From the sequence record NC_028847.1: 64,000 bases of DNA. The stretch is one strand, 5' to 3'. Below the pieces are notes generated by a model. The model did no database searches and had not been told where the DNA came from. It saw only the letters and a list, made by a program, of their open reading frames with translations. Made by a program: the position numbers and the translations under genes. Source of the DNA: Escherichia phage QL01. Positions 21,682-39,444 of this stretch are shown in pieces (position 1 is the first letter of the stretch; each line of letters starts with the position of its first letter).

Positions 21682-21869
21682 TATTCTTCTACATGCTGTT
21701 TACGTTTATTTTTATCTATAAAAGTATATTCAACATATTCACCAATATACCATTTATCGGTGTTGTGTTGACTTTTTATAGGGCATTTAGTTACTCGTGT
21801 TTCGGTCCAGCGTCGAATAATTTCCGCTTTGTTTTTAGGGTCAAACGGATGCGGGTAATGGGCTTTCAT
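21657..21869 (-). CDS. hypothetical protein
   Basis: 70-aa ORF. Confidence 0.35.
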   Translation of the reverse strand: MKAHYPHPFDPKNKAEIIRRWTETRVTKCPIKSQHNTDKWYIGEYVEYTFIDKNKRKQHVEEYCLKVQWL

Positions 21870-22308
21870 AATCTACCACCACTAAATTAATATCAGGAGT
21901 AAACAAATTAATCAATTGGTAAACCTTGTCCCAATCACCACCAGCAATACCACAACCAATGCGAGGGATATAAATTCTTGGTTTAAACAAAAGACCTTTT
22001 GCTTGTTGATTTAATTCTATCATACAGTTTACTAAAGCACCATAATCAAGATTAGGGCCTGGTTCGTATTGGGTATATAAATTATAGCAAATTTGGCCAT
22101 TATTACCTGTGGCTTGAGTAAACGTGCCAAGTTTTGCCAAATTACCTAAATAAGTAGTTTTATCGATAGCGAGAATAGGCGGATAAGCCTTAGCTAATTG
22201 TCCAGCTACACCTGAACCCATTGTGTGGAAACAGTTGCACCCGTGTGCAACATTATTACCTTGAAGAAACAGGGCGACGATATCGCCCTTAATATAATCA
22301 ATAATCAT
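21841..22308 (-). CDS. macro-domain (ADP-ribose binding/processing) protein
   Basis: N-terminal GDIVALFLQGNNVAHGCNCFHTMGSGVAGQLAKAY matches macro-domain GD-I-x...N-x...G-G-G-V pattern; 155 aa. Confidence 0.5.
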   Translation of the reverse strand: MIIDYIKGDIVALFLQGNNVAHGCNCFHTMGSGVAGQLAKAYPPILAIDKTTYLGNLAKLGTFTQATGNNGQICYNLYTQYEPGPNLDYGALVNCMIELNQQAKGLLFKPRIYIPRIGCGIAGGDWDKVYQLINLFTPDINLVVVDYESPLPASV

Positions 22309-22661
22309 TTAGAGTTTAATCCTCGATTGTATGAGTCAACGAGTCTGTCTACCATAGACGCGCACATTTCTTTGTACTTTTTATCAGATGGAATACATTC
22401 AGTAACGTTTAGACGTTGCTCGTATCTTTTAGAAAGAGTTTTCTCTTTCATTCGGCGATGCTCTACGTCATTCTGGCCATCTTTAAAAGCAGCTGTGATT
22501 TTTGAACTGAATTCGATAATGCATTCAGTATTGCTCGGATGACAATAATCTTTTGCTGTACGGGTAGCATACTCGACAATTGAATTATTACTATCATCAA
22601 CTTGTGACGCTAATACTCCCGGAGCAATCAACATAAGCGCTATAGTCATCTGCTTAATCAT
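22305..22661 (-). CDS. hypothetical secreted protein (signal peptide)
   Basis: 118 aa; N-terminal MIKQMTIALMLIAPGVLASQ. Confidence 0.4.
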   Translation of the reverse strand: MIKQMTIALMLIAPGVLASQVDDSNNSIVEYATRTAKDYCHPSNTECIIEFSSKITAAFKDGQNDVEHRRMKEKTLSKRYEQRLNVTECIPSDKKYKEMCASMVDRLVDSYNRGLNSK

Positions 22662-23201
22662 TTAATACACCGCCTCAAACATCTTTTTAGATTTTAGGTA
22701 ATTGGCCTTTTCTAGAACTTCAGAAGCATATTTACTGCCTGCTTTGGCGTTCCAGCCCGCATTATAAGAAGCAATCGCTTTTCTCAGGTCACCTTTGTGA
22801 ACATCAATCCAATAAGACAGTTCAATGTAGGCCCAAGAGGCACTGTTCTGTCGTTTTTGGACCATACGAATTATTTCTTTGTCAGACATCTTCCAACCTA
22901 CCTGTTGAACACGACTTCTTAACGTAGGCAAGTAATTTTGGAACATGCCATAAGCATGGTGCTTATCTTTATTTAAACCCTGATTAATTCCGGCAGATGA
23001 TTCCTGCCATAGTAATCCGGCCATAATATATCCTAATCCTTTTTGATTAGGGTTTTCTTTGAACTTTCCCGACTTTTGGTATTGTTCACCGAAAGCATAC
23101 GCATAATGTAAATTATCGAGTTGTTCATTACTGAAAGTAGGCTCTACGCTATGGGCAGACATACTAACTGTCAATAGTAAAGTGGCTAATACTTTTTTCA
23201 T
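22662..23201 (-). CDS. secreted lysozyme-like/lytic transglycosylase-like protein (T4 vs.1 position)
   Basis: Signal peptide MKKVLATLLLTVSMSAHS; catalytic-like LWQESS and YGMFQ motifs; 179 aa. Confidence 0.45.
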   Translation of the reverse strand: MKKVLATLLLTVSMSAHSVEPTFSNEQLDNLHYAYAFGEQYQKSGKFKENPNQKGLGYIMAGLLWQESSAGINQGLNKDKHHAYGMFQNYLPTLRSRVQQVGWKMSDKEIIRMVQKRQNSASWAYIELSYWIDVHKGDLRKAIASYNAGWNAKAGSKYASEVLEKANYLKSKKMFEAVY

Positions 23202-23213
23202 GAGACCTCATTA

Positions 23214-23672
23214 TTAAAGATAGATTACTTTCGTGCTGGTTTTACCTTCTAAACGTTTAGAGTTAACAAATGCCATACGACATTTAAGGGAATATCCTTT
23301 ATCAGGATGTTTACGGTCTACTGTCATACCTAGCCATAAGGTTTTATCGGTAATTTCGAGACGCAATGGACGATACACTTTACCAGGGACAATTTCGGAT
23401 TCTACATCAGGTAGAGGTTCCTGGATTAAAAATTCATGAATTTCTTTAACATGGTTATGGAGTTGCTTGAATAAAGCAAAAACGTATTTTTCGTCGATTT
23501 CACGTTGGATAGCACGGTCCAACAAGTGATTAGAGTACTTAATAAAGAAGGCTGGGACTCCGCTCTTGATGGCGGCTTTTTTGATGGACGTATTCAGTTC
23601 ACGGAATTCGGTTTCGAACTGACGACGTAATTTATTGCGGCGGATGAATACTTCTGAATTAATTTCTGACAT
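23214..23672 (-). CDS. regB: RegB endoribonuclease
   Basis: 152 aa; FIRRNKLRR...HLLDRAIQREIDE...RLEITD...LWLG resembles T4 RegB; location between tk and denV as in T4. Confidence 0.75.
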   Translation of the reverse strand: MSEINSEVFIRRNKLRRQFETEFRELNTSIKKAAIKSGVPAFFIKYSNHLLDRAIQREIDEKYVFALFKQLHNHVKEIHEFLIQEPLPDVESEIVPGKVYRPLRLEITDKTLWLGMTVDRKHPDKGYSLKCRMAFVNSKRLEGKTSTKVIYL

Positions 23673-23729
23673 TTTGTAATCTCCTGTAGTTGATAGGTCT
23701 ATAGTACCACGTCTACAGGAGATGTAAAC
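23673..23729 (-). promoter_or_regulatory. PeSL-like early promoter cassette upstream of regB (IR CTCCTGTAG/CTACAGGAG)
   Basis: Core variant 23690-23709; gtaaac 23724-23729; arms 23681-23689 and 23713-23721. Confidence 0.6.
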
Positions 23730-23733
23730 TGCT

Positions 23734-23985
23734 TTATTCTTGGAATGGGGTAAGTTTTCCAGCAGCTGAACAAATTTCTACCAGTACAGGGTAAAACTCT
23801 TTCACTTGTTCAAGGCGTTGGGCTGCATACTGTACTTCACCTTCTTCGAGACAAGCCATTTGGTCGTCAAGCAAGTATTTGTGGTAGCCAGTACAGGCTT
23901 CACCGATGATACGCTGGAAATCTTGTAAACTTTCAATTTTCATCAGTATTTTTCCTCGGGTTGGAAAACGGAACGACACGCCCAC
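23734..23985 (-). CDS. hypothetical protein
   Basis: 83-aa ORF. Confidence 0.35.
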   Translation of the reverse strand: MGVSFRFPTRGKILMKIESLQDFQRIIGEACTGYHKYLLDDQMACLEEGEVQYAAQRLEQVKEFYPVLVEICSAAGKLTPFQE

Positions 23986-38159: not shown

Positions 38160-38356
38160 TATTCACCTTTAGAGATTTTATCCATAACGAAAGAAATTGA
38201 ACCAATTAAGAATGCCACTACTAAAGAGATTATATTCTCGGAAGTTGAAAGCATATCGAGCATGAATCCTGCAAACATACTAAAGCCAAAAGCAGTAACA
38301 GCGGCCAGTGCAGTAACATTTCTAATTAATTCACAACGTTTCATTTTATTCTCCAA
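38159..38356 (-). CDS. hypothetical small membrane protein
   Basis: 65 aa with two hydrophobic segments; preceded by promoter cassette. Confidence 0.4.
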   Translation of the reverse strand: MENKMKRCELIRNVTALAAVTAFGFSMFAGFMLDMLSTSENIISLVVAFLIGSISFVMDKISKGE

Positions 38357-38410
38357 TCACTCATTTGTTTTGATAGGGCTATAGTACCATCACTAAAGCC
38401 CGTTGTAAAC
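38357..38410 (-). promoter_or_regulatory. PeSL-like early promoter cassette (core variant ttgatagggctatagtacca with compensating partner arm)
   Basis: Core 38370-38389; gtaaac 38405-38410. Confidence 0.55.
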
Positions 38411-38412
38411 AA

Positions 38413-38685
38413 TTATTTTAAATAAATTGCATATTTTTTATAACCAGCCGTCTCGTGGCGCAGCCCTTTTTCATTAGCAAAACGTTCAATATTGTTAATT
38501 TGATTCTGGTCGAGTTCTGAAGTATCAAATACAAAAAAGTTTCGCTTATTGCCTAAAGTTACGTGATTAGTCAAATCGATGTTATAGAGATGATTTATAT
38601 TATCAATCATGGTCTTAACAGATTTGTTAATTTTTACTTCTTCATTAAGAATAGATTCAGCGATAAATTCTTGGTATGATTTCAT
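38413..38685 (-). CDS. internal protein with capsid-targeting sequence
   Basis: Begins MKSYQEFIAESI; 90 aa. Confidence 0.6.
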   Translation of the reverse strand: MKSYQEFIAESILNEEVKINKSVKTMIDNINHLYNIDLTNHVTLGNKRNFFVFDTSELDQNQINNIERFANEKGLRHETAGYKKYAIYLK

Positions 38686-38686
38686 T

Positions 38687-38911
38687 TTATTCAGCGCCAG
38701 CGGCTTTCAAAAGTTTTTTAAGATTGGCTATGCCGCCAGCAGAAAACGTGACCTTGCCACCTTTTTCATTGATAGAGCCAGTCAATTTAGCAAGCTTATC
38801 ACTAGGGACTTTTTTAAAATCAGCCAGTGTGCCATCAAAGGTTTTTGTAACAATTGGCAGTTCATCTTCATGTCTTTTAGCTTCGGTGATAAATTCTTGA
38901 TAAGTTTTCAT
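38687..38911 (-). CDS. internal protein with capsid-targeting sequence
   Basis: Begins MKTYQEFITEAK; 74 aa. Confidence 0.6.
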   Translation of the reverse strand: MKTYQEFITEAKRHEDELPIVTKTFDGTLADFKKVPSDKLAKLTGSINEKGGKVTFSAGGIANLKKLLKAAGAE

Positions 38912-38977
38912 TTTGATTTCCGTTTGGTTAGTTTGTTTTGATAGGTCTATAGTATCATGCCTATAGACCTTGTAAAC
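38912..38977 (-). promoter_or_regulatory. PeSL-like early promoter cassette (core; IR AGGTCTATAG/CTATAGACCT)
   Basis: Core 38938-38957; gtaaac 38972-38977. Confidence 0.6.
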
Positions 38978-38988
38978 AACTTTTTAAA

Positions 38989-39444
38989 TTATTTTAGGTC
39001 TTCAGCCCAGTCGAGCTTCAAGGGTTCTTTATATTCTCTGTCTAAAACAACAGGAATCTGGACATCTCCACTAAAGCTAAGTGGTCCTACATTATAAGAC
39101 AGGGTGATATGAGGGGTGTAATCATCAAAATCGTGCGTAGCACCTAAGGTACGAGCATACTGATGGCGGCATTTAAGATACTCTGAATTGAGAACCAAAA
39201 CCAGGACAGGAGAATCACCGTGTTTCCATACTTCAAGATGTCCTGACGAAGCAACTTCAAAACTTCCGGATGCAACGGTGTATGGAACGTTGACTCTTGA
39301 ATAGCAGATTGTAGAATGGAATTTTTCACGAGGAACTGGATTAGGAACCTTTAAAGTGCGCTGAAGATTTTCCAGCGCATCTAAAGTTAATTCAGAGAAT
39401 TTTGCAGCAACGTATAGACCTTGAGCAAAATCTTCGGTTTTCAT
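38989..39444 (-). CDS. 57B: 2H-phosphoesterase-fold protein at T4 57B position (Acb1-like candidate)
   Basis: Two H-x-T/S motifs (HSTICYS, HITLSY) typical of 2H phosphoesterases; 151 aa; directly upstream of 57A. Confidence 0.55.

Follow-up and report, generated by a model that had tools for sequence, protein, structure and literature searches.

Escherichia phage QL01 very probably carries three independent counter-defense genes of kinds known from phage T4, namely acb1, acb2 and a tk.4-type macrodomain gene. They were analyzed in a stretch of 64,000 nucleotides of its genome (sequence record NC_028847.1), hereafter the window, where they lie at 38989-39444, 23943-24221 and 21841-22308, respectively. 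All three open reading frames (ORFs) are intact at these coordinates and, like every other gene treated here, are encoded on the minus strand. The assignments draw on homology, synteny, the conservation of published functional residues and predicted fold. The original prediction, which was made from the DNA letters without database searches, had pointed to the same ORFs; the short motifs it quoted, HSTICYS and HITLSY for 38989-39444 and GDIV...NNVAHGCNC...GSGVAGQL for 21841-22308, are indeed found there.

Judged by DNA identities of 93-99% to vB_EcoM_FB, IME540, AnYang, JS10 and IME08, the window comes from a Dhakavirus-type T-even phage. Its gene order is T4-like (tk, tk.2-tk.4, vs, vs.1, regB, vs.3-vs.8, denV, ip genes, e, nudE, tRNAs, ip genes, 57B, 57A, gene 1). 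The three genes span 17.6 kb and belong to three unrelated loci (tk.4, the vs.3-vs.8 block and 57B) with around 30 further genes between them, including lysozyme e, nudE, two tRNA genes and genes for internal head proteins. They are, in other words, three separate loci and not one system. Each gene lies in a long operon that runs leftward, and each shows translational coupling to its own upstream neighbor; the stop/start overlaps read TAATG at 57A/acb1, ATGA at the acb2 start and at vs/macrodomain, and TGATG at acb2/vs.3. A promoter and terminator scan of 21400-26300 returned 11 promoter-like sites, which is fewer than the mean of 14.8 in shuffled sequences.

A Probable Acb1 Nuclease at the 57B Position

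The ORF at 38989-39444 encodes a protein of 151 amino acids from the 2H-phosphoesterase family. By sequence comparison it is the ortholog of T4 57B/Acb1, a member of a nuclease family that removes cyclic di- and trinucleotide alarm signals, and the family assignment of the original prediction is hereby borne out. The protein matches the Pfam family Acb1 (PF23474) with an E-value of 8.9e-59 and 197.8 bits (cutoff 27), its residues 8-149 spanning model positions 1-144 out of 144. The Acb1 of Erwinia phage FBB1 has been solved (PDB 7T26/7T27), and 7T26 matches with an E-value of 1.2e-58. In the alignment with T4 57B/Acb1 that had been proposed as a check, similarity is clear: 85% of the residues are identical, with 22 substitutions. 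The ATG of acb1 overlaps the stop codon of 57A, and the gene has the same neighbors as in T4 (57A and gene 1).

The residues with a published role are conserved without exception. In T4 Acb1, Y12, W74, F107 and W147 stack on the bases of the ligand and E141 reads adenine (Hobbs et al. 2022, PMC9117128); these base contacts are kept in QL01 as Y11, W73, F106, W146 and E140. The HxT/HxT tetrad is likewise present, with H43, T45, H112 and T114 corresponding to H44, T46, H113 and T115 of T4. All nine published T4 residues are thus identical in the QL01 protein, offset by one position. The C-terminal lid region is also preserved, as the final 50 residues differ from T4 at one site.

Purified T4 Acb1 cleaves cGAMP, cUA and cAAA, and its deletion sensitizes T4 to CBASS; both cyclic-nucleotide cleavage and CBASS protection have been demonstrated for the T4 and FBB1 orthologs (PMC9117128). 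The CBASS sensitivity of T4 without acb1 has been confirmed by a transposon screen. By analogy, QL01 Acb1 would be a metal-independent 2H phosphoesterase whose HxT/HxT tetrad cuts on the 3' side of adenosine in 3'3'-cGAMP, cUA, cAAA and similar signals. Because Acb1 would cleave these cyclic-oligonucleotide signals, the CBASS effector would never be switched on.

A Probable Acb2 Sponge Among the Small vs Genes

The original prediction noted that T4 vs.4 has been reported as a cyclic-nucleotide sponge, but left open which of the small ORFs between regB and denV, if any, was its homolog. This ORF can now be placed at 23943-24221. It encodes a protein of 92 amino acids that, based on the following matches, is the ortholog of T4 vs.4/Acb2, a helical hairpin of the cyclic-dinucleotide sponge family. 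The Pfam family Acb2_Tad1_hairpin (PF24729) is hit with an E-value of 1.3e-15 and 57.7 bits (cutoff 27), and the T4 Vs.4 structure (PDB 7UQ2) matches the protein end to end with an E-value of 2.6e-28. The alignment shows 63% identity to T4 Vs.4 and 75% to the JS10 ortholog, which is annotated as vs.4. The protein is 100% identical to vs.4 of phage Bp7, and a homolog occurs in 1230 phage records.

Jenson et al. (2023, PMC10097602) described the cGAMP contacts of T4 Vs.4 (Y8, H11, K23, R79, F82, S74 and T12) as well as its hexamer residues, the mutation of which abolished cGAMP binding or hexamer formation. All contacts are identical in QL01 (Y8, H11, T12, K23, S78, R83 and F86). At the hexamer interface, sequence comparison shows that L29, F33, A70, A77 and A81 are identical to L29, F33, A66, A73 and A77 of T4. 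Conservation is concentrated at both ends of the protein, with 32 out of 36 N-terminal and 18 out of 19 C-terminal residues identical to T4. The part that varies is the tip of the hairpin, which is an insertion in terms of the Pfam family (residues 7-87 match a model of 58 positions). At the DNA level, the middle of acb2 (24040-24099) is 48% identical to JS10, while four neighboring 60-base windows reach 82-90%.

A cyclic-trinucleotide pocket is a trait of a subset of Acb2 proteins and no requirement for membership. The residues that form it in PaMx33, R67 and T74, are replaced by T65 and D72 in QL01 Acb2 according to a profile alignment to 8IXZ/8H2J (E ~1). T4 Acb2 keeps one of the two pocket residues and has been named as an example of a homolog that is unable to bind cyclic trinucleotides (PMC10312549). 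Because the pocket residues are not conserved, we tentatively infer that QL01 Acb2 is a dinucleotide-only sponge like its T4 counterpart. It would assemble into a hexamer of hairpins holding three cyclic dinucleotides in pockets between two monomers, by which the signal is sequestered. In T4, an Acb2 protein able to bind nucleotides is both required for and enough to activate Panoptes (PMC12657218). Since the binding site is intact, QL01 Acb2 should also set off Panoptes-type decoy-nucleotide systems.

A Gln-Type Macrodomain at the tk.4 Position

The ORF at 21841-22308 encodes 155 amino acids that comprise a single macrodomain of the ALC1-like class (TARG1/DarG/SCO6735). Based on sequence and position, it is the ortholog of T4 Tk.4/AdfM, from the anti-DarTG2 macrodomain family. 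The protein is 54% identical to Tk.4 over its full length, and its gene is flanked by tk.3 and vs, an arrangement shared with T4 and JS10. The macrodomain signature that had been noticed at the N-terminus is supported by the Pfam family Macro (PF01661; E-value 4.9e-8, 33.4 bits, cutoff 22) and by an AlphaFold2 model with a mean predicted local distance difference test (pLDDT) score of 94.9, built from an alignment of 59 sequences. The leading Foldseek matches of this model in the PDB are the macrodomains of TARG1, Poa1p, BT1257 and DarG, with template modeling (TM) scores of 0.72-0.77 and a probability of 1.00. The solved proteins closest to it in sequence are BT1257 and SCO6735 (E-values of 1e-8 to 4e-7). 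The MacroD/YmdB-type reading, as expressed in the JGI annotation 'O-acetyl-ADP-ribose deacetylase, regulator of RNase III', was rejected given that the best matches (TARG1, Poa1p, BT1257, DarG and SCO6735) are ALC1-like. Moreover, its first Gly-rich loop is GSGVA, with Ala where the MacroD motif GGGVD has its catalytic Asp.

In T4, a transposon screen identified tk.4 as the sole significant gene, depleted on a host with DarTG2, and a clean tk.4 knockout became sensitive to DarTG2; the gene was named adfM, for anti-DarT factor Macrodomain (HIDEN-SEQ preprint, bioRxiv 10.1101/2025.11.20.689424). This knockout result agrees with the earlier suggestion that hosts carrying DarTG would be informative for the QL01 gene.

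The active site points to a specific type within the ALC1-like class. In a profile alignment to human TARG1, for which the TARG1 sequence was checked against PDB 2LGR, Q80 lies opposite the catalytic K84 and A122 opposite D125. K80 of DarG is the equivalent of TARG1 K84, whereas SCO6735 has Gln85 at this position, and the substitutions Q85A and Q85E abolish its activity (PMC9411070). SCO6735 nonetheless strips DNA of ADP-ribose linked to thymidine and protects cells against the toxicity of DarT (PMC9411070). In the QL01 protein, H22, N25, Q80, G118 and G120 correspond to H24, N27, Q85, G126 and G128 of SCO6735, and none of the five varies among 59 phage homologs. The idea that the protein belongs to the DarG antitoxin family was rejected on three grounds: the profile alignment places Gln at the position of the catalytic Lys of DarG and TARG1, the C-terminal DarT-binding domain of DarG is absent from the single-domain protein of 155 amino acids, and the NCBIfam DarG equivalog (NF048014) reaches 20.6 bits, where the cutoff is 250, and covers model positions 3-138 out of 338. 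The protein would act in the manner of DarG without being one, and the most fitting description is that of a Gln-type, SCO6735-like standalone macrodomain. The invariant Gln at the position of the DarG catalytic Lys suggests that the AdfM family arose from standalone DNA de-ADP-ribosylases of the SCO6735 type and shares their mode of action, rather than having been captured as a DarG antitoxin.

Most likely, the tk.4-type macrodomain removes the ADP-ribose that DarT2 places on thymidine of the single-stranded phage DNA, upon which replication would be restored. The mechanism would be of the SCO6735 type and use the essential Gln together with a water molecule positioned by the backbone, instead of the catalytic Lys of DarG.

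A NUDIX hydrolase (27839-28393; Pfam E-value 1.3e-14) is encoded at the nudE position of T4. T4 nudE is active on ADP-ribose, flavin adenine dinucleotide (FAD) and Ap-n-A (RefSeq annotation). Speculatively, the QL01 enzyme could clear the ADP-ribose that is freed by the macrodomain.

Alternative Explanations

The 57B-position protein might be an RNA ligase or an RNA-repair 2H enzyme (LigT, 2'-5' RNA ligase or cyclic phosphodiesterase) rather than an immune-signal nuclease. It shares the 2H phosphoesterase fold with LigT, and PHROG 755 as well as the RefSeq records of T4, AnYang and IME08 name it 'RNA ligase'. We nevertheless regard this reading as extremely improbable: the Pfam family 2_5_RNA_ligase2 reaches 13.8 bits (cutoff 27, E-value 0.063) compared to 197.8 bits for the Acb1 model, every residue known to hold the cyclic dinucleotide is kept, and the T4 ortholog cuts immune signals in purified form and protects against CBASS (PMC9117128). 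The name 'RNA ligase' in PHROGs and RefSeq is an outdated family name for Acb1. For the 92-residue hairpin, the shared Pfam family PF24729 brings up Tad1, so that the protein could be conceived as a sponge of the Tad1 kind that takes up Thoeris signals (gcADPR), or as an Acb2 with a central segment retuned away from CBASS dinucleotides, in line with the low identity of residues 37-73. Tad1, however, carries a further ligand-binding part besides the hairpin, for which the QL01 protein, being the hairpin alone, has no room. Moreover, the published dinucleotide contacts are all located in the conserved termini and are identical to T4, while the variable segment is confined to the tip that is an insertion in the Pfam family. 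A role as a CBASS dinucleotide sponge remains the preferred explanation, and either variant of the alternative is very unlikely.

In case of the macrodomain, the protein may mainly bind and block DarT2, or may have a primary substrate other than DNA, such as the Glu/Asp-linked ADP-ribose that host ADP-ribosyltransferase defenses or the phage enzymes Alt, ModA and ModB place on proteins, or ADP-ribose-1''-phosphate, as implied by the annotation 'A1pp phosphatase'. Although its catalysis is lost, the Q85A mutant of SCO6735 continues to inhibit DarT through interaction, and SCO6735 hydrolyzes protein-linked ADP-ribose as well (PMC9411070). Furthermore, the ADP-ribose-1''-phosphate phosphatase Poa1p is among the best structural matches, the gene is still called 'phosphatase' in RefSeq, and the AdfM preprint offers genetics and structural resemblance only (bioRxiv 10.1101/2025.11.20.689424). 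On the other hand, the T4 screen on DarTG2 yielded tk.4 as the single significant gene in that same preprint, and the domain by which DarG binds DarT is lacking. Because the residues for hydrolysis of DNA-linked ADP-ribose in SCO6735 (the equivalents of Q85, N27 and G126/G128) are invariant in the 59 phage homologs, selection appears to act on catalysis and not on mere binding. We therefore consider these possibilities unlikely and favor a DNA de-ADP-ribosylase.

A number of points weigh against the proposed functions. Enzymatic activities, ligand binding and phenotypes come from the literature on orthologs and would be transferred to the QL01 proteins, the function of which depends entirely on orthology. 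For Acb2, only five out of 37 residues in the segment 37-73 (window 24000-24110) are identical to T4 and 16 out of 37 to JS10, which belongs to the same genus. Because of the low identity of this central segment to T4, the oligomer geometry or the ligand range of QL01 Acb2 could differ from that of T4 Acb2. The mapping of its trinucleotide pocket, in turn, depends on a profile alignment that is marginal. As for the macrodomain, its score is well short of the DarG equivalog cutoff, and K34 of SCO6735, which is important for DNA positioning, is S32 in QL01. The anti-DarTG2 function of the macrodomain is taken from one preprint that combines T4 genetics with structural resemblance, and the identity to the T4 protein is 54%.

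Neighboring Genes

The regB gene is located at 23214-23672, and five ORFs follow from there to 25249. Their number had been given correctly, although two starts are to be shortened. For the listed vs.3-like ORF (23734-23985, with a GTG start), the most likely start is the ATG at 23943, because the PHROG match begins at residue 15 and a TGATG stop/start junction with acb2 is present. The resulting gene (23734-23943) encodes 69 amino acids with 44% identity to T4 Vs.3 (phrog_2037, E-value 3.6e-29). Upstream of acb2 and joined to its start by the ATGA overlap lies a vs.5-like ORF (24218-24436; 72 amino acids; phrog_1986, E-value 1.5e-35) that resembles T4 Vs.5 at the N-terminus only (33% identity over 30 amino acids). 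For the vs.7 ortholog (24429-24773 in the list), 24725 is the most likely start, because the alignment with T4 vs.7 begins at M17 of the listed ORF and JS10 is annotated likewise; at 24429-24725 the gene encodes 98 amino acids with 47% identity to T4 Vs.7 (phrog_2049, E-value 7.5e-45). The vs.8 ortholog (24722-25249; 175 amino acids; 39% identity to T4 Vs.8; phrog_1488, E-value 5.8e-69) is a small P-loop protein with the Walker A motif GGRQTGKT at residues 47-54; in Pfam, AAA/STAND NTPase as well as terminase N-terminal families are hit weakly, all of them below the threshold. T4 vs.6 (GrcA-like) has no counterpart in the QL01 vs block.

The small ORFs between regB and denV had been proposed collectively as counter-defense candidates. 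This holds for 23943-24221, being acb2, but the vs.3, vs.5-like, vs.7 and vs.8 genes have no known function. A literature search gave no function for these four, and the HIDEN-SEQ preprint does not mention them. The DNA of the window was also compared to JS10 and AnYang. Here, accessory gene content is mosaic around acb2 (23740-23940 and 24220-24400). The vs.3-like gene is wholly absent from JS10, the 72-residue ORF is 72-83% identical to JS10 and AnYang, and a 60-base window in vs.8 (24880-24939) drops to 78% compared to JS10, whereas core genes are otherwise mostly 92-100% identical. Further spots of divergence are located inside the tk.2-like ORF (21520-21640) and in the denV-ipIII spacer. 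Because gene content and sequence diverge at these ORFs within a genus whose core is so well conserved, the acb2 block (with vs.3, the 72-residue vs.5-like ORF, vs.7 and vs.8) might form a small anti-defense island with at least one new inhibitor, and the Acb2 tip may reflect selection by host factors that recognize the sponge; we consider this a doubtful conjecture.

Four proteins (38413-38685, 38687-38911, 25410-25709 and 26250-26846) carry the capsid-targeting sequence of T4, MK(T/S)Y(Q/K)EFI(A/T)E, at their beginning and match PHROGs of internal head or virion proteins. Two of them (38413-38685 and 38687-38911) adjoin acb1 and sit at the ipI locus of T4. Homology to T4 IPI was rejected for these two, as the first 7 to ~20 residues align only, and weakly (E ~0.02). 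T4 IPI blocks GmrSD, and an unrelated capsid-targeted protein at the ipI locus of Bas37 blocks McrBC (preprint). It is plausible that these QL01 proteins are injected restriction inhibitors.

Elsewhere in the span, two tRNA genes, Arg-TCT and Met-CAT, are present at 36858-37014, where T4 has eight tRNAs and two small RNAs. Two larger conserved proteins are encoded at 30099-31121 (340 amino acids; DUF7277 and DUF7275, E-value 5e-77) and at 35350-36009 (219 amino acids; DUF7338, E-value 1.2e-62).

Implications for Annotation and Host Range

The functions of the three genes have already been described, and identical or near-identical proteins are already present in public databases. The minor additions made here are the replacement of Lys by Gln in the active site of AdfM proteins and the hypervariable hairpin tip of Acb2. 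The practical value lies in re-annotation, as the public records trail the literature. In the records of the relatives AnYang (NC_055782), IME08 (NC_014260) and T4 (NC_000866), Acb1 is labeled 'RNA ligase' and the AdfM macrodomain 'phosphatase', while Acb2 is described as 'hypothetical protein' or 'Vs.4 conserved hypothetical protein'. NCBIfam contains no model naming Acb1 or Acb2. With respect to host range, QL01 is predicted to resist many CBASS types as well as DarTG2, and to be sensitive to Panoptes by virtue of its intact Acb2. Such predictions are useful for choosing or engineering T-even relatives for therapy.

Comparison with Known Systems

The Acb1 proteins of QL01 and T4 agree in length to within one residue and share the HxT/HxT tetrad, the stacking aromatic residues, the adenine-reading Glu and the C-terminal lid, and their genes are both located downstream of 57A and gene 1. 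The substitutions occur mostly at the N-terminus and at residues 56-58 and 75-80, and no difference of functional relevance was detected. QL01 Acb2 and T4 Vs.4 have near-identical termini with all cGAMP and hexamer residues and the same position downstream of regB/vs.3, but the QL01 protein is four residues longer and its hairpin tip is almost wholly changed. Similarly, the macrodomain equals T4 Tk.4/AdfM in its length (155 amino acids), its place between tk.3 and vs, and the identity of H22, N25, Q80 (T4 Q84) and G118/G120, while it differs by a four-residue deletion around residues 51-66 and by a divergent C-terminal third.

Beyond phages, the macrodomain shares with SCO6735 (PDB 5E3B) and BT1257 (PDB 2AFC/2FG1) the single-domain architecture, a Gln at the site of the catalytic Lys, and conserved Asn and Gly-rich loops. 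Identity to these proteins is nonetheless around 25%, the Lys at position 34 of SCO6735 has become Ser and the mobile loop of the QL01 protein is shorter. Their origin is different as well: SCO6735 is a housekeeping or SOS-linked gene of the bacterium Streptomyces coelicolor and not a phage gene, and BT1257 stems from Bacteroides. The DarG2 macrodomains of M. tuberculosis (5M3I) and T. aquaticus (5M31/5M3E) and human TARG1 (4J5S) have the same fold class, to which the TM scores given above refer, and the expected substrate is the same, namely thymidine-linked ADP-ribose on single-stranded DNA. The QL01 macrodomain departs from them by the Gln that replaces DarG K80/TARG1 K84, by the Ala that replaces TARG1 D125, and by being free of a C-terminal DarT-binding domain.

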